A DNA stretch of 63,664 nucleotides, filler included. It is 13 parts of 13 records of this genome, joined end to end, with 100 filler letters (N's around TTAATTAATTAA, not from the genome) between each part and the next. Parts side by side here need not be neighbours in the genome. Positions count along the whole stretch, not along the records: positions 26,665 to 33,186 come from SRR15195285_156; 12 more parts are not named here. One strand, written 5' to 3'. A program made the translations under genes and the position numbers. Positions 3,232 through 63,664 of this stretch are shown here, piece after piece (position 1 is the stretch's first letter; each line of letters opens with the position of its first letter). Below the pieces are notes generated by a model that was not told where the DNA came from, ran no database searches, and was given only the letters and a program-made list of their open reading frames with translations.

Positions 3232-3331
3232 NNNNNNNNNNNNNNNNNNNNNNNNNNNNNNNNNNNNNNNNNNNNTTAATTAATTAANNNNNNNNNNNNN
3301 NNNNNNNNNNNNNNNNNNNNNNNNNNNNNNN
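3232..3331. other. Artificial contig spacer (44 N + TTAATTAATTAA + 44 N); also at 7084, 11359, 18200, 22567, 26565, 33187, 37401, 44506, 49810, 54591, 60304
   Basis: The identical 100-nt spacer occurs 12 times. TTAATTAATTAA places stop codons in all six frames. Confidence 0.99.
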
Positions 3332-3592
3332 GGGGCCTCGACTCGGGCGTAGCACTCATACGCCGGCGCCGGCGCATGCATGCAGCGCGCCGGCGCGTGC
3401 GTGCGTGCGCATGCGCGCATGCATGCCTCTCGCCGCGCGCGCCGGCCGCGGCACGCGCCGCGCGCGCCGGCGCGCGCGTCATACACCGACTCTCGACACT
3501 CGCTCTCGAGGTGTGAACGAACGGAACGAGCCGGCGAGACCCTCTGGTGGAGCGTCGGAGAGAGACTATCAGCAACCTTGTCCCGCCCGCCG

Positions 3593-6720: not shown

Positions 6721-7236
6721 AGAGTTGGCATTCATGATATGAAATGGCATTCATGAATGCGTTATTGCAAAAATGCGCACGAGAACACTGTTGCAATCAA
6801 TCAATACATTTTTTCATGCATGCATCGTGTATCCAAGATTATTCCGAGCAAACTTGCATCAGTGCATTCTATATTCAGGTACATATTGTACACTGGGTCC
6901 ATTTTGCCTAGCAAATCAGGCTAGGCTATTTTAATTACACCGAGCTGCCGTTAGCCTAAGACACGAAGGTACGAGCCTACCCGGCCTATCGTGTAAACTT
7001 ATGATGCGCGTGTGCCGTAATGCATTTGTGGAAGATGGTGTCGGGAAGGCGAGTTGTGTGTCTTAGAAAGCATCACTGTCCATNNNNNNNNNNNNNNNNN
7101 NNNNNNNNNNNNNNNNNNNNNNNNNNNTTAATTAATTAANNNNNNNNNNNNNNNNNNNNNNNNNNNNNNNNNNNNNNNNNNNNCTGGGGGAGGGGAGGGA
7201 GATATAGACGAGGGAGGGCACGAGCCGGTGGTACGT

Positions 7237-10752: not shown

Positions 10753-11458
10753 AGCCTCGCGAGGTACCTCTACCTGTATGCCACAGTGTGTGTCACAGTG
10801 TACCGGTTACACAGCAGCCACAGACCTGGTCCGCACGCGCGCGCGCGCGCGCGCGCGTGCTCAACACTCCCTGCGTGTACGGACACTCACGAACACTGAT
10901 CCGCGCGTGCGGTGTGCAGCTCGCGAATCCGGCACACTTTTGAACGAGAATTCTGGACCATGCATTTCAGCATCTTGGCTAGCAATATCACACTAAATAC
11001 CGGAAAAGGACCCAGCCGTTCGAACGACCATACTAGATCTAGTACTGTACAGTCGTGATGCAGTCCTGTAGATGGTCCCGCACGCAGTCAACAGTGTGGG
11101 ATGAATCCCCCATTTGGGGATTCCCTCCAGTCACTGACAGTCATAATTTGAGCATGTCAGGACTGCATCACGTTCTAGTCGCTGGGGTACCATATCGGAC
11201 AAATACCTGTGCACCTACTACCGTACTAGCTTACTTTACTGGTATTGTGAGGACGTCGTTCCCGGGCCGCCCGGATGGATCACCGGCCGCGAGGGGGGGC
11301 GGGGTAAAAAAGAGGGGGTTTAGCTGGCTGGGGCGCAGCGGCGTCACTGGGGTGGTGGNNNNNNNNNNNNNNNNNNNNNNNNNNNNNNNNNNNNNNNNNN
11401 NNTTAATTAATTAANNNNNNNNNNNNNNNNNNNNNNNNNNNNNNNNNNNNNNNNNNNN

Positions 11459-18196: not shown

Positions 18197-18299
18197 CCCN
18201 NNNNNNNNNNNNNNNNNNNNNNNNNNNNNNNNNNNNNNNNNNNTTAATTAATTAANNNNNNNNNNNNNNNNNNNNNNNNNNNNNNNNNNNNNNNNNNNN

Positions 18300-22101: not shown

Positions 22102-22739
22102 GGACCCTGAATCCGGGCCCGCCGCTCCGCAAGTCTCGCTGTGCGCTAATCTGCAGCTGGAGAGGTATTGGATGGCTCGAGCCAAACTACTGGCACAGCA
22201 GTACCGCTCGGATCCTACATACATGCTAGCGCTAGTGCACGCGTGGCCGTGCACCGGACGGTCCATCCTAACCGATACCCCGCACATGCGTGCCCTGGCA
22301 TCTTCAACCTACTAAGCTCTAACCCTGTTCCCCAGCTCCCGCGAGCCCCAGAGCCCCGTCTCGCGATTCAACTGCAGGATCGACGATGCGCACTATCGAA
22401 TACTATACGGTATACGGCGCGCGCGCGCGCGCGTACGTACCGCCCACACCGGATTTTTACTACTAGATCTAGCTAGTAGGAAGCATATTCATAGTCGACA
22501 TAGTACACCGCCGCCGCCGCCACCGGCGTGCGGCGATGATCTTGGAGTCAATCGATAAGCGCCGGANNNNNNNNNNNNNNNNNNNNNNNNNNNNNNNNNN
22601 NNNNNNNNNNTTAATTAATTAANNNNNNNNNNNNNNNNNNNNNNNNNNNNNNNNNNNNNNNNNNNNTGGTGGTGGTGGTGTCTTGAGGCCACTTTCGCAG
22701 GGCTGGGGTGGGCAGGCTGCAACTTTTATTGCCCCCGAG

Positions 22740-25700
22740 ATGCTGCCACACATCGGGGGCGCAGCGACGGAGCGGACGAGGGGGCGGAAGGCGAACCGGT
22801 TCGACTCCGCGGTGGAGTACACGCGGATGGTGGACCCGACGGTGATGACGGACCTGCGGCAGGCGAAGGCAGTGTCCCTCACAGGGCTGTCGAAGCAGCA
22901 GCGGACCCCGCGCTTCAAGCGCTTCATCAACACTGCGCCGCTGGATCGCTTCTTGCTGGTACGCGCCGCCTCAGAGATACTCGAGCACTATTCTCGGCTT
23001 TCCCAGCCGCTACAGTCTGCCGCTACGTCCGCCTGCCTCGGTCTGTCGCTCCCTCGCTTTCTCGCTCTCTCGTCCCTCCCTCCCGGTTTCTCGGCGGTCC
23101 TGGTCTCCCGGTGGATTTTGTAGCTGACAGGTTTTGCCGCGCGTAGGAGTGCCAAGCTTACGTCGACCTGAAGTTCGGCAATGTCGAGGCCGATGACGAG
23201 CATGGTGAGAGCACTTCGTCCGTCCAGGCCAATCAGGCTGAGCTGGACGCGCAGATGAAGGGCATGGCGCAAGCCTATGCCTTCATCCTGATGAAGGAGG
23301 GCCACAACTACCAGCAGATCCACAACGAGAAGATCTTTTTTGAGACTCTGTACGACTTCACTGTCCGCGTCACGAATCAGCGGTTCGGGCCGCGCGTTTG
23401 GTGAGTGCGCACCCATCTGATAGGCTGCCTGGCCTCACCGGGCTGAAGCTCTGCTGTCGGATGTGCCCGCAGGCCGGCTATCACCCAAGAGCTCAACCGA
23501 GTATTTCGATCAAACGGTTTCAACCTTGCCGACGACACACGGGGAGAAAAGGCCATGCAACACTCATACCTGCCGGTGCGCCGCCTGTTTGAGCTGCGAG
23601 AAAACCAACGGATGCAGGGCACTGCTCTTTCCGGGACGCGGCCAGACGACACTCCTCTCCATGGTCTCGTGGCTGCCACTGGAAAATCTCCGATTATCAT
23701 GTCTGCCTTTCACAAGCCAATGCTGCCACACCAGTTGGCTGCCATCGAGATGAGAAAGCCTAGCCCGCCGAGAGTACGGCTGCCCGGGATAGGTTCACGA
23801 AATTCGCAGCAAGTTAGTATGATGGCCCGTGTGAACTCGTACCACGAAATACCGAAAGAATCGAGCACAAGCAGGCCTCGCAGGGTTATGAGAGCAGCCT
23901 TGCCTCCTGCTGGAAAAGTTTCGCCCAAGCCTGAAGAAAAACGTGGCGAAAACATAGCAAAAGAATACAACTGGGCGCGTGCCAGGCGGTACGTGCAGAT
24001 GTCCTCAATACTCGGGTCGAATATCAGTTCGGGCCGCAGGAAAAAGGCCCAGGTCAGCAATATCGCGCCGGCGGCGGAACCTCCGTGCGCAGTGAAAGAG
24101 CCTCGGACTGTGTCGCGAGAAGGCGTCTCGCTAGGGTTTTTGAAGCACATCGTTCAGTGGAGCATGGCATCGCAATACCCGAGAACAATGAGTGATGGAA
24201 GGGAGGTGCATTCCTATCGAGAACTGACATGCGAGGACATCGTCAACATCCTCGTGCTACCGCGCACACACGATGAGGAGCAACAGGAGAGCTGCAGTTA
24301 CACGGAAATTTTAGTGCGGAATCGCCAGGCCTATGATAACCGCCCTGCAGCTGGCAGGGCGACTGTATTCGTCACTTACTGTCGCCGGTATTTGTTTGTG
24401 GAGCTTGTGGAAGCGTTGTCCGATTTCCAGGACAAGTACATGTGGATTGACATGTGGTCAGTAGACCAGACTGAGCTCATCAAGAATCGTATCGATGCAG
24501 AGTGGCTCACAGCTTTGGAGAAGACTGCGAAAGAAATTGCACACACAGTTGTAGTGTTTGACCAGTGGGAAAGCGCCATGCCGCTATCTCGTTTGTGGTG
24601 CCTGTACGAGCTCGCCATTACTGCAGGCACCTATATCACCTTCGGTGTTGTACTGATTGCACAGGGGGCGTCTGATCTGCAACAGGCTATGATGAAGTCG
24701 TTCAAACAGCTAGCGGATTCGGTGCAAATTGACTTCGCCAATGCGAATATCGAGGACGACAATGAGCGCAGTGTGCTCATTGGTGCTCTCGGTGACGACA
24801 CCCTAATTGATAGGCAAAGTGATATCGAGAGCATGATACGGGACTGGCTGGCCGATCAGGGACGGAAAGCCTTTCGCAGCATGCCGTCAGAGCTACGTGC
24901 AACGTCGGACCTAGCAGAACAACTTGTAGAACAACTGAAAAGTCTTGGCAGACTAACTGAGGCGCTGCCCTTGACGCGCCAACGGCTGGCTGGTGCAAAG
25001 ATGAAGCACGGTGAAAATTCAAAAGAGAGTCTGGCATGCATGCATACCCTCGGCGAGCTGCATCATTTGCGTTGGGTTTGCAAAGATGGCGATGCTTACA
25101 ACGAGTTGAGTTTGGCGTTGCCGCTGCTTTCTGAATCTCTACGAGGCCGACGTGAGCTTTTTGGGTTGATGGACATAAACACGCTGAGTACGGCAGACAA
25201 GCTTGCCCTGGTGCATTACGATATGGGTGACCTTGAGTCTGCGCAAGCGCTTGCCGAAGAGGCAGTGGCAGGTTTCACCAAGTTGCTAGGCGACAACCAC
25301 CTTTACTTGCTGACGGCAAAGCAGAATCTGGGCCAGATCTTGCGTGAACTGGACCTGTTGGATAGAGCGCTGCCACTGCATGTGGAGGCGTACGAGGGTA
25401 AGCAACGTGCCTATGGACCAGATTCACCTGAGACAATCGATTCAGCCAGCGCGCTTGGGTTATTATATGCGGCACGTGGCGAGAACGGGTCGGCCGCTGA
25501 AGCTCTTCGTACGGCATTCAAAAGCAATTGCGCCGTGCGCGGCAACAGCCACCCCAGCACCATCATGGACGCGAAGAAGCTGCGTAGTGTGCTGATTAAT
25601 CTGAAGGCGACGTCGGTCAACGAGACTGGCGTCTACAATCTCGAGCTCGCGGAGCTTGACAAGTTCATCGACGGCGAGAGGAAGAATTCGACTGGCGTTC

Positions 25701-26200
25701 TGGCTCAACTTGATTCCATGGCGTCAACAAGCGTCCGAGGCCGACGTGGCGAAAATCTCGAGATCATGGAGTCGGTATACGACGACTGCCGCAAATCACA
25801 CGGCAACCATGACCCTCGAACGTTGGAATGTCTTGCCTTGATCGGCTGGCACCATCACGTACACGGAACAAACTCTAATATCGCGGTGAACAACCTCAGG
25901 CAGGCATTAGTAGGTCTGACTAATTTGGTAGATGAGAACGGCGTCCACCACCCGCTTGTGCCCAAGGTAGCGAAGCAACTGAGCGTGACGCTAGAGAAGC
26001 TATCACAGCAAGAAGTCGATGGCCACCAGGAGCAGGTGCAGCTCGACGCCTCGGAGATGCACATTCTGAAGGAATTGTGCATGTCAACACACGAGAAGGC
26101 TCAGCGAGGACGTCGGCGCGTTTGGAAGGCCGCGAAGACGGCAGTCATGTTGCAATCCGCGCTGACAAACTCTATCGACCAAACGAACGACCATGAATAG
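22740..26200 (+). CDS. PPP1R36-like N-terminal region + TIR/HET-like domain + kinesin-light-chain-type TPR repeats; introns 22959-23146, 23401-23472
   Basis: Spliced FFETLYDF...ELNRVFRSNGFN. ATVFVTY...MWIDMWSVDQ...PLSRLWCLYEL. TPRs such as LGDNHLYLLTAKQNLGQIL and YGPDSPETIDSASALGLLY. Confidence 0.75.
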
Positions 26201-26521
26201 ATGTGGCCTTAGCAATAGTCTTCCTGCAACTCACTTTGCCTACTAACCAGTTGTGGCATGGCAATCATTTTAGGCTCTATTGACAATAGAAACCGAGGCT
26301 GAGTGTGTCCTAACCGTCTGTGGCGGTTTCCGCTAGTAAAAGCAGAAACCGCCACAGACGTCGCCAAGCTGGCCACGTGGCGCCAATCGGCGCTGGGCGG
26401 TGAGCGGGTGGCGGCACCAATCGGCACTGAGCGATGGCGGCGTGGCGCTGGGCGGTGGGCCGTCGCCGTTAATTCACGCGGAATGATTCTGAAGCGCCGG
26501 GGTGCTTCGTAAAATAAGACA

Positions 26522-26554: not shown

Positions 26555-26664
26555 TTACATGTAANNNNNNNNNNNNNNNNNNNNNNNNNNNNNNNNNNNN
26601 NNNNNNNNTTAATTAATTAANNNNNNNNNNNNNNNNNNNNNNNNNNNNNNNNNNNNNNNNNNNN

Positions 26665-28190
26665 AGGAGAACACAAGTTTGGAGGATGGATCTGCCCGAG
26701 GCGGGTGCCGAGTTGGGCAACTGCTGGGGCGCGTCGAGACCAAACCTGATAGGAATTCTGCAAAATCGCCAGGAATTGCAGTTCTCTGCGAAGGATCGCC
26801 TGCCACTGCAGAGGACGGCAAGGCGATCGTGCTGACGCCGGAGGAGCGGCGCCTTACGCTGGCCCACTGCCTGATGAAAGTCGGATGGACGATCGGGTTT
26901 GGGCTGTCGTCGGCGGCGCGCATGGAGCACGTGATTGCGCTGTGCGGGAACGACATGGTTCGGCTCTCTCAGTTCAACAGCACCGCGTGGGGCCTCAACA
27001 GAATGTGCGCGGCCGTGTTAGGCCCCATCGTCGCCTCGCTGTCGGATGCGTACGGTAGGCTGCCTTTCTTGCTGCTCGGGCGCCTCGGCCTCGGATGCTG
27101 GTTTGCGGGATGCGCGGCGAGCACCAAGCTCTGGCACTACGCCCTGACTGAGCAGCTCACGTGGGGTTTCCTCATGTGTGGCTGGGAAGCTGTTGAGGAC
27201 GCGTTCTTTGCAGATCTCTTCGGCGAGAGGCCGGAGCTATCAGGTCGCATTCGCTCCCGCAATGGGTTTTGGTCGGGGATCGCAGGCTTCGTTGCGCCGT
27301 TCGTGGGGATCGCGTGCGCCTCGCGCAGCCGACTCGGAACGATTCTTCTTGGCGCCGTCAGTCAGTTGCTGCAGTGTGGCGTGATTCTGTGGCATGGTGA
27401 AACTCTGTCTGCGCCAAACCGAAAACCCTTCAAGCTGGCGATGGCCAATCCTTTCTCGTCACTGACCCTGCTCTTCCGAAATGGTCAGGGGTTGCGTCGT
27501 CTCGGTTACTGCGCGACCTGCTTCACTGGGTGTGCCTCGTCGTGGGGCACCCAAGAGCCGTTCCAGTTTGGCGCACCACCGGTTGGCGTTGGAATGTCAC
27601 CAGCAGAAGGGTCCGTCTTCGACGCCGTTTTCCAAGCATCCGGTGCCGTGAGTCAGGGATTGGTCGTCCAGCCACTCTTGAAGCGCCTTGGCAATCGCCG
27701 CTGCTTTCAGTGGACTTCTGTGAGTGCTGCTGTGTTCTACGTTCTCATGAGCCAGTCGTGGCGTCCGCTTGGGGCCTCGCACTACCGTCGATTGGCGCAG
27801 TACTTCGTCGCGATGGCTTTGCTACAGTCACCTTTCAACGAGCCAAGCTTCTTTTGCATCCAGCCGATGGTGATGAAGCAAGGCATCGCCGCTTGTCCAG
27901 AAGCAGGCAAAGGGGCGATCGCAGCGGCATACTCTGGACTGGAGAATGTCATGGGCTCCATCGGTATTTTCCTCCTTGGCTGGCTTGCGCGGGGGTTTAT
28001 CCGAGGGGAACGTGAGGGCTGGTTGCCGCGGTGGTTGGCTTGGGGAGGTGGCGGACACTTCGTGCTGTGCGCTATGGTGCGCTTTATTGGCGCTGTGATC
28101 CTCTGGACGACACCCGACCACCAACTTCACCTGACAGAAGAATCAACCGAGGCTGTTGCAGAGTCTAGCAGGGACGAAAAGCGGGAGTGA
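26665..28190 (+). CDS. MFS transporter (DHA1/TetA-like), probably 5' partial
   Basis: MFS motif A SLSDAYGRLPFL; FFADLF; ETL...RKPF...NPFS linker; LLKRLGNRR; many TM segments. Confidence 0.85.
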
Positions 28191-28335
28191 ATGCAAGACA
28201 ACTGTCACAATACGTACTAGACGCGTTTTGCCGGTGCTGTGACTGGCAAAGCCTCGCACCGCCGTCCTCGCTCGGCGCTTTCAACTACACATCCACTGCA
28301 GTGCGCGCGATCGAAGCTGAGAACGATTGAAGCAC

Positions 28336-28435
28336 GAACCTTCTCACATTACGTCTCACCACTGTAAGCCCCGGGCGTCACGGCTTGGGTCCCCCCAAGG
28401 CGTAGCCCCCGAAACTCACAGCGGGTCACAGATCC
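28336..28435 (-). promoter_or_regulatory. Putative non-canonical SECIS element in the thioredoxin 3' UTR
   Basis: Sense strand reads GUGAC-[17-bp helix, 12 Watson-Crick + 5 G-U]-apical stem with GGGA loop-UGAG, about 40 nt after the stop codon of a gene with an in-frame TGA. Confidence 0.6.
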
Positions 28436-28469
28436 AAGCCAGCCTGGCTCCACATCACTGCTCCTTAAA

Positions 28470-28946
28470 CTAGTCGCTCTTGGTGCTGGTTCCAACGGCC
28501 CCATTCTCCACGAGTACCTTGGCAATAGCATCCTGGGCGAAACCGCCCTGGGTGAACACCTCGGCCTTGTCCTTGAAGACTTTGAAGGTCGGGAAGGCTG
28601 ACACGTTGTTCGCTGACAGTACCTCCCGCGCCTGATCACCGTCCACCTTGACGAACACCACGGACTCCTCCGTGTACTTCTCGCTCATCTGACCGTAGAT
28701 GGGCGCGACACCCTTGCACGGCGGTCACCAGGTGGCGTAAAACTCAGCACATACCACCTTTTTCTCGGCGGCGGCCTTTGCAAGCGTCGCTGTCCAATCT
28801 GCCATCGAAGCGATGGACTTGACTCGGCCGCCGGTCTCGGGGAAGGGCTGCTGGGACTGCCAGATCCGGTAGATCACAAAAAGCAAGAGCAGTGCGTTGA
28901 GTGGGTTGTCCTGCAGGTACGCGATCACGCTGCCCACGTCCAGCAT
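28470..28946 (-). CDS. Membrane-anchored thioredoxin with a selenocysteine active site (WUPPC), 158 aa
   Basis: ORFs 28725..28946 and 28470..28688 share a frame. The sequence reads VVCAEFYATW-TGA(28727-28725)-PPCKGVAPIY...VFVKVDGD...VSAFPTFKVFK. N-terminal hydrophobic segment LNALLLLFVIYRIW. Confidence 0.9.
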
Positions 28947-29089
28947 GGGGGGCGCACGGGATCGGACGACTGCGCACGTGGATGGATCCGTCCGCGGAGT
29001 CTCGGCGCGCGAGCGCGCGGGTGACGACGACGACGTCCACGCGCGCGCCGCCGGCGCCGCGCTGGCCCGGGCGGAGCTGGCGCTGGCCG

Positions 29090-29980
29090 ATGATGGTGCA
29101 GCTGGTCACTGTGCTCACGCTGGCGTCCATCGCTGACACACATGCCGCAAGCGGCAGTGACCAGGGCACGCGCGTGCCGTCGCCGGTATTGGCGCCGCCC
29201 AGCTGCAACGGTGGGTTCTGCTCCTCGCTAGCGCACTATCCGGTGAACGGGACGCAGACATACGCTGAGTTCGATGTCCCAGCTCTGCCGAAGAAGATTG
29301 GGCCAACGTTCTTCGTTTATTACAACATCGACTGGCAGGCGGCTGGACCCAAAGGCTCAGACGCTAGGATGAATCAGTTCGTTCCGCAGCTCATGCTGGG
29401 CAACCCGCTGTGCAACTCCTCCGGCCCGCCAGATTACAGACCAAAGTGGCACGAAGAGAGCACGTGGGTGTTCGGAGCACAGTATTTCTTCGAGATTTTC
29501 AATGAGACTGCCAACGCGACACAGGGCCACGCGGCTACAGGTGAGATGTTTGGCACACAGGAGGGCGAGGTCATCTTCACACGGTACACGTTGTCGAAGG
29601 ACTGGGTTTGGACACTGGAAATGGGTGTCAAAGGGGACCCGTCGCGCCTCAGCACTGTAATCGCTGAGAAGCCGTTTATGGGCCTGCTGCCTGAGTCGCA
29701 AACCAAGTCGTGGTCGGAGCCGATCTATGCAGAAGCATGGGGCAACGCGTGCTGGGAGCTGTACGGAATCGCAGAAGCAGCCAACTATCCAAGCAGTGGA
29801 ATGACCTTCACATGGACTGTCACGGCAGATGTGCCGGGGTCAATCGAGTGGAGCGATTGGAGCGCGCACTCCGCAACTTGCCCCGGTCATCCACAGCAAA
29901 ACATATCTTGGACGAATACCCCTCAGCAGCAAGTTGTCACATGGAAAATTTACTACGAGGAACAACAGCCTGGCGCTTAG
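29090..29980 (+). CDS. Secreted hypothetical protein (296 aa, beta-rich)
   Basis: Signal peptide MMVQLVTVLTLASIADTHAA. Intronless, Trp/Tyr-rich, with NQFVPQLMLG and CWELYG motifs. Confidence 0.75.
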   Translation: MMVQLVTVLTLASIADTHAASGSDQGTRVPSPVLAPPSCNGGFCSSLAHYPVNGTQTYAEFDVPALPKKIGPTFFVYYNIDWQAAGPKGSDARMNQFVPQLMLGNPLCNSSGPPDYRPKWHEESTWVFGAQYFFEIFNETANATQGHAATGEMFGTQEGEVIFTRYTLSKDWVWTLEMGVKGDPSRLSTVIAEKPFMGLLPESQTKSWSEPIYAEAWGNACWELYGIAEAANYPSSGMTFTWTVTADVPGSIEWSDWSAHSATCPGHPQQNISWTNTPQQQVVTWKIYYEEQQPGA

Positions 29981-33186: not shown

Positions 33187-33378
33187 NNNNNNNNNNNNNN
33201 NNNNNNNNNNNNNNNNNNNNNNNNNNNNNNTTAATTAATTAANNNNNNNNNNNNNNNNNNNNNNNNNNNNNNNNNNNNNNNNNNNNACTCCACAAGAATC
33301 CAACCCAGCCTGTGTGTGACTCGGGGTCGGCGCCTGGGAAGGCCTATACCTTGGGTATAGACCCATTTGAACTGCAGG

Positions 33379-37322: not shown

Positions 37323-37500
37323 TAGCCCTGTACGTAGCGGTACCGGAATGTCGTCCACCCGCTGGATTCGCTGGGAGTACGGAAAACTCACTGAGAACTG
37401 NNNNNNNNNNNNNNNNNNNNNNNNNNNNNNNNNNNNNNNNNNNNTTAATTAATTAANNNNNNNNNNNNNNNNNNNNNNNNNNNNNNNNNNNNNNNNNNNN

Positions 37501-41050: not shown

Positions 41051-44000
41051 TCACTCAAGCAAGGAGAGCTCACCATGCGCGCTGCTCAATAGCAACGTCC
41101 CATCGCCCGCAATTGTCGCCACCGCCAGCGCATTCGCCCCGCCAATCGCATCCAACTGGCATGTCGTACTATTCCCCGTGCTGTCGGTCATGATCAGTGT
41201 AGATCCCGAGGGTACCCTGTACATGCAGTAGTGAGTGGCTCGAGATTCAACCAAACAAGCCCAGAGTGCAATGAATGCGAAATTCCTTACCATGCCGTGC
41301 CGCCGACATCGATAGTTAGGGCCGCCGCGCTTACGACGCCCACACCACATCCAGGACCAGTTTTGTACGGCCACACTTCCTCGCCGGTATTTATGACCAA
41401 CTTGGCTACTTTGTCCGACCCGCAGCCTGGCGTGTTGCCGCTTATCAGCAGCACGTGCTTGCCATCTGAAGTGATTGCACCCATGGTTGAATGAAAAGTG
41501 GACATGTTCTTTGCCCACAAGATCTTTCCTGCAACAGACACCGCCGTAGCCAGTCCACCGCCGGAGGCGCCGTAAATGACGGTGCCAGATGGAGCAACAG
41601 TCGGGGATGTGTAGATCACTTGTTGGGTCTGGACAACCCACCGCTCTTTCCCTACACAATCATTCATCAAAGGTGTTACAAGCTGCATGAAGGTGAAATG
41701 AAACAAGTGGATCATGCCATACCAGTTGCAGCATCAAGAGCGTAGAGCGCCCGCCCTGCTGGAAAGTGAATCACAGTGCCATCGGCGCTCACAGCTGGTG
41801 TCGCCCTCACTTGAGCCATCGTCCCAGAGTCCTTGTCCACAGCTTGATATTTCCATTTCTGCTTCCCATTCATTGTGTTAAAGGCATACACACATCCGTC
41901 CCATGCTCCCACGTAACCTGTCTCAGGCTTCGACTGGCCACTGTGAGTTGCTAGTACAACGCTGCCCGTCACAGGTGCGCGACCAGTGCCGCCATCCATC
42001 CCTCTCACCACACTTCCCGTCTCGAAACTCCACACGAGTGAACCGTCGGCTACACTGAACGCGTACACCGTTCCCGCGCCCGTGCCTGCAATCACAAGAT
42101 CGTCACCAGATGAAGCAGGCGCGATCGCCGGCGTGCTGAAGAATTCGGATTTCTGTGAGGTATTAACGGCTGTGTCAAATTTCCAAATACTGTCACCATC
42201 GCTCATGGAGACTGCCCAGAGGCTGCTGCCACTGCCCACAAAGGCACGCCCACTGTGATGCACAGCAACGCTGGACTCTGTCATCCCATTCCAGCTGTGG
42301 TTATCGTGTCCCATGGCATTGATCCATTTCACCGCCGTGGGGCACTTAGAGGGTCCCATGTAGGATGACCGACCGGTGTGACTAGAATCCAATCCTCGCA
42401 TCGCCACGACAACAGTGGCATTGGTCGATCCAGAGCGATTTGACATCGCCGTTGGGTGGCTTAGCACCACATCATCTATACTGTTGTCCAGAGTCGAAGG
42501 ACCAGGAACCGAGGGCGGCACGGGCACCGTCTGTGGCTGATGCTGTGTGCGGCTGCTGCGGCTTTGGGCATGCTTTGGTGGGACCAGTGCTGTTCGAAAT
42601 TTGCTTGCCTGCGCTGCTGCAAACTTTGCTGCCATCACTGCATCGTTCGCACTGATCTCATATTTCGCTGCAAGTGACTGCGCTAGTCCACGGTCGGTGA
42701 TTGGGGTCAGGCGCAGCATCCTGACACCATGAACAGGAACGTCTACTGTGATATTTCCTGCGAGAGAAAGAGTCCCGTCAGTGCTACAGGCTTCATGCAA
42801 CCACACATCTCGGCAGCTGATCTTCGTCACCAGTTGGTCATCCGCTTCCACATTGTCGAAGTCCCCTAGCAAGCTCAGAGGGAACTGCACAGCGTTCTGC
42901 GCTGTTGAGCCACCGTTGAGAAATAGCAAGACCTTGGCTCCGGCTTCGAGCGGACCTGCCCACACTTCGACAGCAGCGCCAGGAAAGGCAATGCGAGAGG
43001 CAGGCATCGCTAGCGGATCTTGTGAAATTGCTATGGCCTCCTTGTTGAGAAAGATCTCATAAGCGTCTGCTGCTGTTCCATTCATCACCTGTGCGTTCGA
43101 AAGATCGCATCCGAGCAAAAGCGGCGCTTTGGCGATACACCACAGTGAGAACTGCGTCGTGTATTCTGTCTTGTTCTGCCCTCCATTTCCAATCTCCAAC
43201 ATGTCCAAGTCATTGAAAAATCCACCTTGGCCTGGCACTGCCCGAATCTCAGTCACATTCGGGGCCGTGTGAAACTCGCCTAATGTTGCTCCAAACGAGT
43301 CACCAATATCCCCTCCCACACGACGTGCATTGGAGACATTACGTGCGTCCCACGGAGCAACCAAAGAAGGATTCTCGATGGAGAAAAACATGGGCCTACG
43401 CGTGGCCTTGAGGCCTGTGAAAAACCGCTCATACAGGAGGTAACCAACACCCTCTAGATTTTGATTGATGCCCCCTCCTTTGATGTTGGGAGTTTGCGGA
43501 TAACACGCATCGTTTTTGACGTAATCAACACCCCCTGTCAATGACGTCAAGTTGGCGCGATATCGTGAGTGATACCGGCAATGAATGCTAGCTGGATCTA
43601 GCACACACGGTATACCTCTCTGGGTGGTAGCTACGGATGTGTGCGCACGAGGTCAGCGCAGAGGAGAAAGCAACTCACAGTCGGCAAACGTCTGGGCGTC
43701 AGTGAACTCGTTGTCCAAGGTGCCGGGACGATCTTGGCATGTACGGTAGCCGGAATCAACGTAGATGCCGAACTTGTTGCCCTCAGCGTGGATGTCGGAG
43801 CAAAGCTGCTTAATTCCGCTGGGGAAGATGTGCGGGTCCGCTTGAAGGCGACCTTCCGTGTCGCGGAATTGAGCTTGCCAGCAGTCATCGATGTTGACGT
43901 ACTCGTATCCTGCGGCAGCGACTCCCGTCGTTGTGTACAGCCGTGAAATGTTGCGCAGGATAGCTTCGTTGACGGCACAGTGATAGTGATTCCAGGCTGC

Positions 44001-44294
44001 ATTGGTAGACAACACAACCGCGCCCGCCGTGAGACGTAGTCGGTTTTGTAGCTGCTGCGTGCGCGACTATTACCAATATACGACCACAGCTGCCGTGCAA
44101 AGTGCTAAAGGAAGTGGTGGGGAACTGGGGGCTGCATGCATCGCACAGTTCCATCCCATTGGCGGGGTGGCAGCCACACTGGTCGCGTTGGGTGCAGTGC
44201 CAATTGGTACATGGGCAGCTGCAGCAACGGCTGTGACAGATACTAGCCATACTGCTAGTGGTAGCATCTTCAGCGTCAGCGTAAGCAGCAGCAT
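41051..44294 (-). CDS. Secreted GH27 alpha-galactosidase/NAGA fused to a C-terminal PQQ/BamB-type beta-propeller; introns 43997-44146, 43535-43678, 41652-41722, 41217-41290
   Basis: TPPMGWN|SWN, YVNIDDCW, FPSGIK, W|GVDYVKND, RVGGDI, FNDLDMLEIGNG, APLLLGCDL; then repeats like VYAFSVADGSLVWSFETG and VYAFNTMNGKQKWKY. Confidence 0.9.
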
Positions 44295-44706
44295 TGCGAG
44301 GGACACGGAGTGCGCGGTCTGGATTTGCTTGACGTTTGCCTCTGCCAGCACCCGCTCCTATTGCATTGAACACACACGTACAGTATGATCGATCGCGATC
44401 CACTACCAGCGTACTATTCATATATTCGAATAGTACATCGCACCGGCGAGCGCGCGCGCGCGCGCGCGCGCGTACGTTGTCGATCGCGCGCGTGCTGTCA
44501 TTCTGNNNNNNNNNNNNNNNNNNNNNNNNNNNNNNNNNNNNNNNNNNNNTTAATTAATTAANNNNNNNNNNNNNNNNNNNNNNNNNNNNNNNNNNNNNNN
44601 NNNNNCTGATCTCAAGAGTAGCACATGTACCGGTACAGTACTGTACCCGGGTAGGGGACACTATCTTGCTACACTTTGTTTACAAATCCAGTCATTACAA
44701 TTTGCA

Positions 44707-49034: not shown

Positions 49035-51294
49035 TGCAACGGCCGCCCACGCGCAAAAATGCTGGCGCACGCCCAGTCCCACGCTGCCGCACCCCTCCAG
49101 CTCTACACCTCCCCGCCCCGCACCCGAACCATCAGCAGCCCTTGCCTCCCTGTCCCATCGCCAGCCCTCCCACCGCCAGCCCGAGCTCCATCTGCCCACG
49201 CATCGCCATCAAGAGGGCGTGGCCATCATGAGGTCGCAAGAGCGCCGCGGACGGGCGGACCCTAGCCTGCTGCATAACACATGCTCAAGAGACAAGTACT
49301 GTACTGTACTGTACAAGGTACTCCGGTACATGAACATGTACTGTAGCCGGATTCCTACTACCGGTACGGTATCATTGTGTACACTATTCATGCATGCATG
49401 AATTGTACTACCGGTACCGGTATTGGTCCCATAGTAATTAGTACATTTATATAAATTGGTTATGCCAGACGAATTCCCAATTCCGAGAAAACGATGGTGG
49501 TGTACACAGTACACGTACCGTACATCTATTATACGGTAGGTACACTTGGTACAGTTTCCAGTATTCCAGTAGGATTTCCAATGTGTGATGTCGACCGCAT
49601 ATCCTCGCCGGTATTCGATGACTGCGCGGGCCCTACCCACCTTGTGCGCGATTTGACCGATTTCACGACGTGACCTGACGTGGAAGCTGTTCATCACGAT
49701 CACGACGAGGGTCGGTTGCGTATTTGTCCAGAGTACGATTACAGGGAATCCATGAGGGAATCCCATTGCAAAATACCAGTACGGCTGGATTCATTGAAAA
49801 AACAAACTCNNNNNNNNNNNNNNNNNNNNNNNNNNNNNNNNNNNNNNNNNNNNTTAATTAATTAANNNNNNNNNNNNNNNNNNNNNNNNNNNNNNNNNNN
49901 NNNNNNNNNTCTAACAGGCTGACCAATCGGTGCACTCCTGATCTAGTCGGATTCATGGGCCAATAAGCCTGCAATACGCGCGCCCGTCCTATTATTGAAA
50001 ATCAATTGCTCGAGAGTGGGAAATCCACTAGTGAGCGTCTTATTCGTACTACATAGTAAGCGGGTAACTGTAGGACCTGTATGACTATCATACAGTAGTA
50101 CAATTGATAGTACTCAAATACAAAATGTACAAAAGCACTTTTGTAGGCGTGAGTCGAGTGGATGATTTCACCGCAGTGGAATGTGTGGCTGCGGGTGAGG
50201 AAAGCTTTCTCACTCATTCCTCACTATCGCCTCACCATGCGCCTCACCCGACCCGAGGAAGAACAGAAATTCGGCTCATTTTCCGCAATCCCGTCCGTAA
50301 TAAATCTGTGGTGCGAACCCTGAAGCGAAGACTGCGGGGACGTGTGGAGGGATCATCCGAAGGCATGATGGACGGTATACCGTTTCTTCTTCTCTAACCG
50401 GCGTACACACACCCCAATTGACACCAGAAAATACAACAGCAATTCCTGATCCATACACAAATGCAGTGACAATCCACAATTGTCGGATGACCACACTGAA
50501 AGATGTAAAACGGAAGTATCCGCGAACGTAGTTGAAAAACAGTACGCCATGCAGTACGTCCAGGCGAGAGTGATTTCATTCCGGATTCCCCGCAATTGTG
50601 CGTGGAGAACAACACCGACGTCACGCCCGAGTCACGACGGACTCAAGTACCGTACCAAAACCACCCGAATTTCCGATACATGTAGCCAAATCCGGTGCAA
50701 TTCCGGCGGCCAATAATGGTACCGTAGGAATCCTACAGCTGTACTATTCATATAATGTACAGTACGTACTCTCTAAGAGATGTACAATCAATAGTAGCAC
50801 TACGAGGAATCCTACCTGAATCTGTACATGTATTCATGGTGTCCCGCTCACGCCATCATCGATGTACGACGCGGCACTTACTATCATACGGTACAGTAGC
50901 AGAACTACATACTAGCTAGTACGCACACCTGTCGGTTACACAACGGCCCGTTTGAACGCACTGGGGGGTTGCAGTACGTGATTGGTGTTGTGAAGCGACG
51001 GGAAGGGGGTACTACAATAGTAGGTGCTGGGTTGCGAGCGCGGTGCTGACAGTGCAGCGACTGGCTGCGCGTACGTCACGCACGCGCTTACGGTACCTGG
51101 TCTGTGGCCAACCCACAAGCGCCGCAAAGGGACTACGCAAAGGCGGCTTACGGCGCTGGACGAGGAGGCTGGTGTGCGGCGGGGTGTGCGCGGGGTGGCC
51201 GGCGAGAGAGTGCAGTGGGCGCCAGGGTGGGGCAGAGCGTGCGTGACGGAGTGAGACGGACTCACCCGCCTGGCGGAGCCTGCGGCTGAGAGGA

Positions 51295-54590: not shown

Positions 54591-55006
54591 NNNNNNNNNN
54601 NNNNNNNNNNNNNNNNNNNNNNNNNNNNNNNNNNTTAATTAATTAANNNNNNNNNNNNNNNNNNNNNNNNNNNNNNNNNNNNNNNNNNNNGAGATGGGCA
54701 GAGTGCTGACTGGGTCGTAGTGTCTATGTAGAGATATAGCAGAATAGCAGAATATCCATGGAGAGATGTGCGTACCGAAAGCCAGCGCCGTGCACGCATA
54801 TGCAGATGATACCGGTTTAGTACACCCAGCGATGGAGGAACAGAGCTGTTGCCACTGCCTGCGTGAGCGTTAGCGACTGTGCTGTCCGCAGCGAATGTCG
54901 GCTGGCTCGGGATATTCCTGCAGCGCATGGCAGATGTGGAAACGGCGAAATTTGGCTTGAGCTTGATTGTAGAGCTCTGAACACTGCACTCGCTGGTTCG
55001 GTGAGA

Positions 55007-58000: not shown

Positions 58001-60247
58001 CGACGGAAGCATCTCCGATGCCTGACAAAGCCACGTACACCGTGTATCTTTTCAATGGCGCCAGGCAGCCGACTAGTTTCTACGCTGAGCTAGATGTACT
58101 GCGCCAGGCTGCACAGGCGGGAGGAGCAGAGCGTATGCCTCGCTTCTTCTCGATCAATGACGCCATGGATGATCCTGGCTCAGACCACATTGTCGCCTTT
58201 GTCCGGGACAGCTTGTTAGCGATCTTTCCATCGCGATCAGCGTTCGAGAGCGATTCAGCAAGCCTTGGATTGAATCTTCCTGATCCGAACCCAACGAAAC
58301 AATGCCCGGACGATTATTTCTCGTGCGCGCCAGTATTAAACCATCTAGCACCACGTCGTTCCCGGATATGTCATCGCAATCAGCTATCGACGATTGACAC
58401 GATGAGATCTGTGTAAATGTTGGCAGGTCCCGGACAGATGCTGGTGGCCACTGCCCATCGGACTACCCTTCATCTCAAGGAATCTGCACCGCTATGCAAG
58501 GAAATGTCGCGGCCGTCTGCGAGTACACAGTCGACTCACGCCCTGCACTCTGCCGTTGCTGTTACCCGGCTCGACTTACGTGGGAATGTCGCTACACGGA
58601 TGATCTTGGCAATGACGCGGGACAAGGTGGAGATGCCCTTGTTGATCCCGCGACATACTACCACAAAATTGCGGTACGTCGATTCAACTACGCTGTTATG
58701 CTCAAGACAAGTTCGGTTGATCTCCAACTAGCTTCTTCCTTCCTCATGAGATCGTTTGAGATGAGATCAAGACCATGCACTGTTGGACTGATTGATCCAT
58801 GAGAGTGTTGTGTACTGCGATGTGGTGGTCACAACGCAGTGGAGAGGGCGGTCCAACTCGGGCTTGGATGTTGAGGCTCCGAATGTTTGGTCGGGAGAGC
58901 TTCAGACTGATCGTGCAGCATTTGAGAACGCCTGGGGTCGGTGTCAAAGTGCGTAGCTTGCTACAGAGATCTTTTGCAAGTTTATCGTACCCTCACCAGC
59001 AACATATAGGCCGAAGATCGCTGTTGTCAGGATGTAATGCGTTGTATGTGCTTATGTTTATACTACTATGGTTATTCGCAGCCGTCGGGGCCATCGATGT
59101 ATTGGTGGCAGTCCCATATGATGATATTGTTCCCTGTCCAGTACGAGAGAAGATGTTCGAAGCGCTGGCTCGGCTTGAGTGTGGCTCTGGCTCAAAGTTC
59201 AATCTTCATCTCGGTCTCGTTGACGACTGGGAGCCAACACTGCCAGAAGACCTCGGCCGACGAGCTGCAATTGCACGGCTGCGCAATCACTTGCTGGACA
59301 AATTTCTGAAACCGGAGCAGTGCGCGTCCCCTTCGAAGCGCAGCAGACTCTACCAATATCCTCACTGCGTCGACAGTGCACGGATACTGACTGTCTCTGC
59401 GGTTGTGTACAGTGAGTATGTGCTGTGGCTGGACGGTGGTGTTGTCGAGTATCCTGAAGATCTCGTGGCAAAGCTGCATGGAGTAAATCCCGATGGTGTC
59501 ACTGCACCGTTGGTGCTGGTCGACGGGTCGGACTCGATGCAGTATCACCAGCGGTTTTGTGGAGCAGTGAATTGTGGAGGGTCGTTCGTCTCCGCACGTT
59601 CGCACAAACTGCATGATCCTAGGGGGTTCTTCGTTGCTGGTCGTCCCGTGCGCCGCACCCTGCCGTCTTACTCCTGCAAGTATTTCCACTGCCAGACTTA
59701 CCGCCGCTAGCACTAAGTGTCTCTGTTGCTTTGCAATAGGTTGGCACTGATGCAGCTAATCCAGCAAACGCAAATGAGTGGTCGCCGTACCTTGGAGAGA
59801 CTACCAGCAATTCAGTTGTGGAGTGTGAGTCTGTGGGTGTGAGCTACCTCGCTCCGGCGAGCATCTATCGTCAGCCGACGGATAAGGTCCCTCGCTACTT
59901 TGCTACCCCACTAACAGAACACTATCCTGTAATTCATGCGGCCAAGTACGAGCTTGGCATGCGAGGTACGGGCATCTCTCTTGGTAGTACCTTGCGGTGT
60001 TCAATGTGCTTTTCCTTGAATTCTTGCATTTGTATAATCGTGTTCTTGACCTTGCTATACAGTCGTGACGGACACGTCCGTTCGTGTGTTCCAAGCATTT
60101 CTACCCAGATGGGGGACGCAACTTGAGGGCTACAACCCACCATTCGACGATGCTCGGATCGAATGGCAGCAATGGCTCAAACCATTTCTTGGGAAGCAGC
60201 TGGACGCCCCAGAACTCCGCACAACTCCACCTGCGCCTGTGTCATGA
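55007..60247 (+). CDS. Type II membrane multi-glycosyltransferase: GT4 + Stealth phosphotransferase + Anp1/GT62-like domain; 9 introns (55985-56124, 56787-56847, 57897-57955, 58323-58426, 58674-58839, 58949-59081, 59320-59412, 59648-59739, 59966-60062)
   Basis: N-terminal TM and Pro-rich stem. MFETDR, RK|GWDLLL, FVLPSRGEGWGRPMVEAM. VDLVYTY, LRMSLRSV, LPTFNSHAVE, HAPH, FFSIND. IARLRNHLL, VLWLD, ESVG, TEHY. All junctions are GT-AG and frame-preserving. Confidence 0.8.
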
Positions 60248-60651
60248 CTGACAGAGTGATCAATTGGGCGGCAGCAGCGGTGGTGGCGGTGGCGGTGGCG
60301 GCGNNNNNNNNNNNNNNNNNNNNNNNNNNNNNNNNNNNNNNNNNNNNTTAATTAATTAANNNNNNNNNNNNNNNNNNNNNNNNNNNNNNNNNNNNNNNNN
60401 NNNTCGAAGACCGGATCGTTGCTGGGGCGCCCTCCCTGGGCGGGTCTGTGCGGCGGCCGCACGCGCGCGCGCGATCGCGATCGCGGCAGCACGAGAGCAC
60501 GACGTGGGCGTGCAGGTCGAGCTCAGGGCACCTGGACAGAGCGCCGTGCCAGTTACATGGAAACACAGACGCTGCTAGAGTTCGAACGTCGCCTGCTAGT
60601 CCACTCAAATGAGCTCCAGCAAGTAGAGCACGACTGAGGTCAGCTTTTTTC

Positions 60652-61879
60652 ATGCATAGCGGCACGCCGTCGCATCACACCCCAGCATCGTACGCAACTA
60701 CTGGTAGCACTGCTGCGCAGCAGACCAACTTGAAGCACGAGCCGCTGCTGGCTGGCGAGCGATCTATGCCTCCCGCTCCTCCACTAGCTGCAGTGGCAGA
60801 TCTTCGGCGACCAGCCCTTGAGCTGCTGCTGTCGCTTGGCGCTATAACAGGCGCGGTGCTGCTAGTTCTGTGGCAGTATTCTTCGGTGCTTGGCAGCCCC
60901 GTTGCAGTCGTTCAGCCCGCGCACCCGGCTAACGATCCAGCGCGGTCCGTCTACTTGGGCATGGGCTGTTTCTGGCACACGCAGTATGATACATTCCTTG
61001 TCGAACAAAAGCCGCCGTTCTCTCGGGTTGCAGACAAGACAATTACCAGTCTCGTCGGGTACGCTGGTGGAAGCTACATGAGTCCTGATGGGTCTGTGTG
61101 CTACCAAGGAACTCCTAGCACTGACTACAACCTGCTCGGGCATGCAGAGGTCGTATCCGTCGAACTAGACCCGTTGACAGGAAACACATCGACGCGAGCG
61201 GCCGCACAGTTCGAAAGCTTGATCAAACACTACTTCGACGAAGGATTTTCCCGGCTTGCGGATGGCAAGCTGCAGCGACTTGACCCGATGGATTCAGGCC
61301 CTGAGTATCGAAACGCCGTCGGCCTTCCAGGCGGCAACGGCAGCGCGCTGTATCCAGCGCTAGTTCATGCCGCTGCGGATGCAGGGATGCCACTACGGGA
61401 CGGACTTGGTGGGCCACACCACGACAAGCAGGATGAGTTCGTGGTATGGGTGTATGACTCCACTCACTTCCCCTTCTTCAAAGGCGAGGAATACCACCAG
61501 TTTCATCCTAACACAGTGCTAGGGCGTTGGGTCCCGGAGTCGTGCGTGCTGCCCCAACTTTCTGCCGGATTAGCCTTATGGACATTGCTACAAAAATGCA
61601 GTAATGAACTTGTGGTGTGTATACCTGAGTGTGTACTCGTCCGCTGACACTCACAGGTACACAGGAAGGCTAAAGACCGTGCAAGAGGCTGAAGGTCGCC
61701 TTGACCTGGACGGGTGTGCAGGTGAGGGAGCCGGCACACTGCTCAGTTTGTTGCCGGTCGCAATTGGAGTCCTAGGTCTGTGCGGCCTTGCACGTGCGGC
61801 CGCGGCCGTCGGACATTTGTGCGATAGCGTTCGCGGCAGCGCCGTGTCTCGCGCCAGAAGCACGACTGTGCAGTGCTGA
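60652..61879 (+). CDS. msrA: MsrA-like peptide methionine sulfoxide reductase with N- and C-terminal hydrophobic segments; intron 61542-61656
   Basis: YLGMGCFWH, VGYAGG, LGHAEVV, GPEYR, GEEYHQFH. The active-site residue is Cys (TGT). The start codon is uncertain. Confidence 0.8.
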
Positions 61880-63230: not shown

Positions 63231-63664
63231 CCAGCGCCCTTTCGTTCACTTTCGTTTGCACTGAGTATACACAACTTACTGATGCATTCACGCGCGCACG
63301 CGCCGCGGCTGACCCGCCGGCGCGTGCGACGCGTCCGTCGCGCGCGCGTCGCGTCCCGCGCGCGCGCGCCACACGAACCGCGCGTGGCGCGACCAGCCCA
63401 CGCCGGGGACCTGGGCCAACTTCGCGTGCACGTATATAGTTATATACTAGATCTAATATAACCGCGCGCGTGTCGGCGCCACGCGCGCGCCACGTGGTGG
63501 GCGTATCGTAGCACGCACGTCGCGTGGGCCTATCCGCCGTGTATAGCAGTGACGATCTCTGCATTGGTACTGTTGGGTGCGAAGGAGGTATTCCGTGGGC
63601 TACTGCCCGACGAGATGGTGCAGTCGGACGGTCATGACGAAGAACAATGCCAATATGGTGGAAC

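Follow-up and report, generated by a model that had tools for sequence, protein, structure and literature searches.

A candidate AAR-free SECIS hairpin downstream of a putative thioredoxin-fold Sec gene in marine DNA

Eukaryotic SECIS elements, as PMC2746813 outlines them, combine two helices with a kink-turn built on a GA quartet and an AAR at the apex. Can a hairpin that keeps the flanks of such a quartet and carries no unpaired adenines at the usual place direct Sec insertion? This question is raised by a thioredoxin-fold gene from a marine source that has a TGA within its reading frame and a long hairpin past its stop codon. An earlier note, made from the letters alone, had read the hairpin as a SECIS variant with an extended, GNRA-capped stem and no AA.

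The window analyzed here, a stretch of 63,664 nucleotides including filler, is composed of 13 contigs placed end to end. Each of the 12 joints (3232-3331, 7084-7183, 11359-11458, 18200-18299, 22567-22666, 26565-26664, 33187-33286, 37401-37500, 44506-44605, 49810-49909, 54591-54690 and 60304-60403) comprises two 44-N runs enclosing the linker TTAATTAATTAA, whose letters were read at 26609-26620, the other eleven joints being judged by their equal 12-nt spacing. Since TTAATTAATTAA is a six-frame stop linker between contigs, genes of different segments are not necessarily neighbors; the gene discussed below lies on the contig at 26665-33186. The gene content of the window is eukaryotic, with choline-transporter-like, cyclic-nucleotide-gated-type ion channel, ankyrin, TPR and Stealth proteins, and among the matches listed a near-identical stretch was present in 19 public runs from 15 studies, six of these runs being RNA libraries.

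A thioredoxin-fold gene with an in-frame TGA

The gene and its neighbors are arranged as follows.

28470..28946, minus strand: thioredoxin-fold coding sequence with an N-terminal membrane anchor, 158 aa by translation, from ATG at 28946 to TAG at 28472-28470
28725..28727, minus strand: putative Sec codon TGA, codon 74, within the active site W-U-P-P-C
28982-29980, plus strand: flanking gene, 332 aa, no Pfam match
26874-28190, plus strand: flanking gene convergent on the selenoprotein gene, 438 aa, many hydrophobic stretches, no Pfam match

The encoded protein matches the Pfam Thioredoxin family (PF00085; E = 4e-21, 75.4 bits against a cut-off of 23.5) over residues 49-145, a span that runs across the TGA, and codon 74 aligns with the first Cys of WCPPC in five homologous proteins and 13 metagenome loci. 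The full-length metagenome homologs, which share 47-53% identity, are Cys forms with WCPPC. At the DNA level, the W-C-x-P-C motif was found in 71 of the 80 metagenome loci kept, always with TGY, and CPPC in 13. All 80 are Cys forms; since the retrieval patterns demanded either Cys or an FKVF motif and thereby favored Cys, this uniformity is no evidence that Sec forms are rare.

TGA terminates 12 of the 22 long ORFs in the window and is thus an ordinary stop in this organism, so that the TGA at codon 74 requires a recoding signal. The codon appears with 0 differences in contigs of four RNA libraries from four studies (records 2, 10, 19 and 22). In a diverged relative (X16 record 18, which over 28408-28624 differs at 30 letters and has 4 gaps), 10 of the 15 differences listed for the coding sequence after the TGA fall at third codon positions by hand count, a bias which argues that the region downstream of the TGA is translated. 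Furthermore, the called ORFs of two close relatives, P0007 and P0009, both start after the position of the TGA, as they would if that position held a stop codon in them as well.

These observations bear on an alternative in which the TGA does not specify Sec at all, being instead an assembly or strain artefact, the end of a 73-aa stub or a site of near-cognate readthrough, with the hairpin serving some other regulatory purpose, for example as a small-RNA precursor. Selenium incorporation is itself a prediction from the sequence, and the hairpin does bear a faint resemblance to a miRNA precursor (mir-77, RF00827; 16.2 bits, E = 0.99), a candidate that we rejected with its score far under the gathering score of 83. 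Against this alternative stand the unchanged TGA in RNA libraries of four studies, its alignment with a catalytic Cys inside a domain match that spans it, and the starts of the P0007 and P0009 ORFs, and we accord it only a slim chance. We regard the gene as well supported as a Sec gene, with Sec predicted at residue 74.

All 166 of the 166 TGA-spanning frames of the window were scanned against Pfam, yielding five matches at 1e-4. The thioredoxin gene alone has its TGA within the domain at a catalytic position; the other four were set aside, with the TGA lying outside the domain or within an intron, and no second selenoprotein gene was found among these frames. A search of the window with ARAGORN gave no tRNA gene, tRNA-Sec included.

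Several further observations concern Sec-like signals or the surroundings of the gene. At 41715-44066 (minus strand), a Melibiase_2 (alpha-galactosidase) match improves from 1.1e-10 to 6.7e-45 on reading through one TGA; after ...DAQTFAD this gene has an apparent short in-frame intron, starting GTGAG, rather than Sec, which indicates that the organism has short introns. An ORF at 60406-61644 (plus strand) reads ...GMGCFWHTQ..., with Cys present, and gave no Pfam match at 1e-4; the string resembles GCFW, which forms the active site in methionine sulfoxide reductase A, an enzyme that is a selenoprotein in some algae. Just 5' of the thioredoxin gene, the GC-rich stretch 29024-29059 resembles many unrelated RNA contigs at <90% identity in all four runs and probably represents a common GC-rich motif of low complexity; positions 28996-29085 fold at −56.7 kcal/mol.

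Structure of the hairpin past the stop codon

The hairpin (28429..28355, minus strand) measures 75 nt and begins 40 nt after the TAG of the thioredoxin-fold gene; the G of GUGA lies at 28429, and the sequence and position were given correctly in the earlier note. Its parts, listed in mRNA order, are as follows.

28430..28435, minus strand: possible helix I, 5' strand GGAUCU; the relative has no listed change
28425..28429, minus strand: SECIS core, 5' half GUGA-C; fits UGAN, and no change is listed in the diverged relative
28408..28424, minus strand: helix II, 5' arm CCGCUGUGAGUUUCGGG; pair probabilities of at least 0.96
28376..28407, minus strand: upper part ("mini-stem"); the sequence differs in the relative and is self-complementary there too (paired by eye)
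28359..28375, minus strand: helix II, 3' arm CCCGGGGCUUACAGUGG; from RNAfold pair probabilities
28355..28358, minus strand: SECIS core, 3' half U-GA-G; K-G-A fits the consensus, and the final letter is G, not W
28336..28341, minus strand: possible helix I, 3' strand AGGUUC; 13 nt past the 3' core, by inspection

RNAfold reproduces the structure that had been claimed for the arms: helix II comprises 17 bp (12 Watson-Crick and 5 G-U), fully paired, with every pair at a probability of at least 0.96. The mini-stem contributes about 11 bp above this 17-bp helix, for a hairpin of about 28 bp in total, and is composed, in order, of an internal loop (GGC/ACG, holding a single G-C pair), UACG/CGUG, a mismatched C-C, CUUGGG/CCCAAG and a loop of GGGA (28393-28390). 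The 82 nt at 28352-28433 (minus strand) fold at −49.3 kcal/mol, a value equalled or bettered by 0 of 200 shuffles (z = −5.21), whereas the opposite strand reaches −34.1 kcal/mol, equalled or bettered by 3 of 200 (z = −3.08). As the opposite strand is about 15 kcal/mol weaker, the strand-specific G-U pairing that the earlier note described is real.

The text of PMC3753652 gives the SECIS core as UGAN/KGAW, above which adenines usually stand, with cytosines occasionally in their place. The flanks of helix II have this register, in agreement with the quartet geometry that had been suggested, but the final core letter is G where the consensus has W. The helix I that had been suggested is possible: GGAUCU and AGGUUC can form 6 bp, 2 of them G-U, across a 1x13 internal loop, but this helix is absent from the MFE fold, in which RNAfold pairs these letters otherwise.

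The AAR is described in PMC2375036, PMC3753652 and PMC2746813 as unpaired, either in a terminal loop (Form 1) or in a bulge (Form 2), with the core about 10-13 nt below. Here the 5' strand of the hairpin has no AA, as had been noted, and unpaired AA or CC is absent at the usual place. The site of the AA(R), 12-14 nt after the UGA, is occupied by UUU (28414-28412), wobble-paired with GGG (28371-28369) at a probability of at least 0.99.

The position of this patch invites the explanation that the element is a SECIS of the ordinary kind that folds otherwise than RNAfold predicts, a part of the helix opening in the protein complex and exposing an unrecognised apical equivalent, with nothing mechanistically new. 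Three consecutive U-G wobbles exactly where the AAR usually lies would suit such an opening, and one unpaired A, that of GACG in the internal loop on the 3' side, is seemingly shared by the window, the relative and P0007, as judged by eye. On the other hand, all pairs are predicted at a probability of at least 0.96, and the 5' strand has no A at the AAR place, with the comparisons between relatives covering the 5' arm. Of the alternatives weighed here, we find this one the least probable.

Chance occurrence, competing signals and conservation

We scanned the window for RTGA-N, an uninterrupted helix and N-GA, with 60 dinucleotide shuffles as the chance set. Two matches were obtained, the 17-bp helix of the hairpin and a second one of 10 bp at 58799-58925, which we rejected: it is at chance level, is unused in the MFE fold and has no selenoprotein upstream. 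The shuffles contained a mean of 1.08 helices of at least 9 bp and 0.05 of at least 12 bp, with none of at least 15 bp and a maximum of 13 bp. No flanked helix was found beside the Cys-homolog genes, where 320 kb from 80 loci gave 3 matches of 9-10 bp, all located elsewhere.

When ranked by folding with correction for GC content, the hairpin is among the best 6 of 4094 90-nt windows, the others being very GC-rich stretches and the palindrome at 26311-26400. The strongest folds of the window, reaching −73 kcal/mol per 90 nt and present on both strands, occur at 3346-3510 and 63271-63420, both of which have a GC fraction of 0.74-0.86 and lie close to contig ends. The palindrome is near-perfect over about 20 bp, folds on both strands (−57.9 and −53.4 kcal/mol), has no UGA/GA flanks in the RTGA-N scan and follows the stop codon of the TPR gene at 23555-26200 by about 110 nt.

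Such a structure near the end of another gene favors the alternative that ours, too, is a generic 3'-end or intergenic hairpin (a terminator, a stability element or a palindromic insertion) with coincidental flanks, the true SECIS being unrecognised or the gene decaying. The setting would suit it: the stops of the two convergent genes, at 28190 and 28470, are separated by 278 nt, and the hairpin lies inside that interval. The missing AAR and the missing Rfam match point the same way. Flanks in register with so long a helix, however, arose in 0 of 60 shuffles, and the bias of 15 kcal/mol toward the strand of the selenoprotein mRNA is unlike the palindrome at 26311, which folds both ways.

This alternative also leaves the Sec gene to be served by some other signal, and no other candidate was found. 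Between the convergent stops no other structure was detected (28195-28352, z = +0.58), and just after the UGA there is no bacterial-type SECIS (28650-28730, z = −1.10, 31 of 200 shuffles as good). A canonical SECIS elsewhere in the UTR would have counted against the proposal of the earlier note; a loose canonical pattern (UGA, helix, AA/CC, GA) matched 25 times in the whole window and 0 times in 27300-28475. The Rfam SECIS families gave no match either in the 501 bases around the hairpin (E ≤ 10) or in the whole window (gathering score or E ≤ 10), so that the hairpin escapes these standard models as had been anticipated. Among viral contigs there were 0 exact matches to the 19-nt core string; 77 thioredoxin loci found there were generic. 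The hairpin is thus the best and only SECIS candidate found for the Sec gene between the convergent stops.

Two RNA-library contigs from two studies run from the last part of the coding sequence across the whole hairpin and show 0 differences (X13 record 8, 28288-28489; X16 record 17 of a poly(A) library, 28342-28521); these contigs indicate neither strand nor ends and may include DNA, and thus are no proof of transcription. RNA contigs give no cover at 27900-28031 and 29088-29200, which is uninformative either way.

The diverged relative X16 record 18 offers a comparison that covers one locus and its 5' arm, the 3' arm of relatives lying outside it. Across the UTR at 28438-28470 this relative has 9 substitutions and 4 insertions, and no difference is listed at 28408-28437, which contains GGAUCU, GUGAC and the 5' arm; as 6 of the 30 differences are unplaced and omissions may occur near the aligned end (about 28408-28414), conservation is firm for about 28415-28437. 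Past 28408 the relative departs from the window, and the 30 letters shown there are CGTCGCGCTCGGGCCCCCCCGAAGCGCGCG (plus strand). Inspected by eye as mRNA, CGTCGCGCTCGGGCCCCCCCGAAGCGCGCG forms a nearly continuous stem with a GGGG loop, in which a U-A pair is replaced once by C-G and the C-C mismatch or bulge is retained. Being self-complementary yet different, it suggests that the long upper stem is conserved as structure rather than as sequence, and the apparent GGGG loop suggests that the GNRA cap is probably no constraint. P0007 (91% identity over 30% of the query), whose ORF continues into the UTR, retains SVTRCEF, into which the core and lower arm translate, and then diverges; it ends ...QW, at the place of CAG UGG in the window, after which comes the UGA of the 3' core. 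A search with the UTR-derived part of P0007 recovered P0007 alone.

A core that is kept beside a diverging UTR, together with third-position-biased change after the TGA, argues against a generic hairpin, and taken with the chance tests leads us to consider that alternative, the strongest of those weighed here, unlikely.

Relation to known SECIS elements and significance

We conclude that 28429..28355 (minus strand) is most likely a functional SECIS of the adjoining gene, of a G-preceded, long-mini-stem type without an AAR, with a probability of about 0.65. In the mRNA 3' UTR, GUGA-C and U-GA-G would form the tandem G-A/A-G core, to which a SECIS-binding protein would bind; this protein would recruit the Sec-specific elongation factor with Sec-tRNA to codon 74, whose UGA lies about 296 nt upstream, and the active site would be made as U-P-P-C. 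Helix II would continue through the UUU·GGG wobble patch into the upper stem, in an arrangement otherwise like Form 2. What the data themselves establish is a gene with TGA at a Cys position, a fold with a strand bias, a core that is in register and conserved, and the presence of the element in RNA libraries; function, and with it protein binding, Sec insertion and any substitute for the AAR, is inferred. Counting against the SECIS reading are the lack of AAR or CC, the G rather than A or U as the last core letter, the weak helix I, the lack of an Rfam match, the strong hairpin at 26311-26400 that has no selenoprotein gene, and the fact that one locus is concerned.

Much of this architecture has precedents in Ostreococcus, Chlamydomonas and Dictyostelium. 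According to the text of PMC2375036, a G precedes the quartet in all but one of the O. tauri SECIS elements, almost all of which have a long mini-stem; the same is noted for some Chlamydomonas genes, and an "extremely long mini-stem" for a Dictyostelium deiodinase-like gene. The same text lists a thioredoxin-fold selenoprotein for Ostreococcus-type algae and gives a Dictyostelium search pattern with AAA after 10-12 nt. Neither the G before the quartet nor the long mini-stem is therefore new. Like the Form 2 elements of Ostreococcus tauri and O. lucimarinus, the hairpin stands in a 3' UTR with a GA quartet, a preceding G (28429) and a long mini-stem, a likeness in architecture by published description. 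Unlike them, it has no AA or CC where their consensus places unpaired A's in an apical bulge, and helix II runs on for 17 bp. The hairpin of the earlier note thus stands as the best candidate with its AA indeed absent; its extended stem belongs to a known kind, and its GNRA cap is likely to be incidental. The further suggestion of that note, a lineage-specific Sec-insertion code, gains no support from the one selenoprotein gene found in the window. What sets the hairpin apart is the missing unpaired AA(R), in place of which there is a UUU·GGG wobble patch.

Replacement of the apical adenines is not in itself unprecedented. Mammalian SelM and SelO have cytosine-bearing SECIS elements. The description of SECIS elements with apical cytosines in PMC3753652 offers a case in which the adenines were replaced and the GA core was retained. 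Those elements present unpaired conserved nucleotides at the usual distance, whereas here the UUU is predicted to be paired with GGG. The Rfam SECIS covariance models, RF00031 and the related SECIS families, target the same kind of element, and the hairpin is unmatched by them at E ≤ 10. On the protein side, the gene resembles EhSEP2 of the marine alga Emiliania huxleyi (-UGHC-), as characterized in the text of PMC6254913, in that Sec would take the place of the first Cys of CxxC within one thioredoxin-fold domain. It differs from EhSEP2, a PDI homolog, in being a short, N-terminally anchored thioredoxin with UPPC, whose nearest full-length relatives are Cys forms. The text of the literature searched, figures and supplements aside, contains no description of a SECIS without an apical motif.

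The AAR is treated as defining and as functionally required in every eukaryotic SECIS, and search tools rely on it. Even a single odd element would be useful for SECIS training sets. If the hairpin functions as proposed, a working AAR-free SECIS would mean that the AAR requirement is not universal and would provide a natural test case for the actual role of the apical motif. We put forward more tentatively, as a possibility about which we remain doubtful, that an uncultured, abundant lineage of marine picoeukaryotes uses a class of AAR-free SECIS elements in which the UUU·GGG patch, one helical turn above the core, or the conserved unpaired A on the 3' side of the internal loop replaces the AAR. 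Elements of this kind would evade pattern and covariance searches. Surveys of marine picoalgae, in the text of PMC6627142, report selenoprotein genes without a predicted SECIS, and AAR-free elements could explain such genes; current tools would then under-count the selenoproteomes of marine protists, the organisms richest in selenoproteins.
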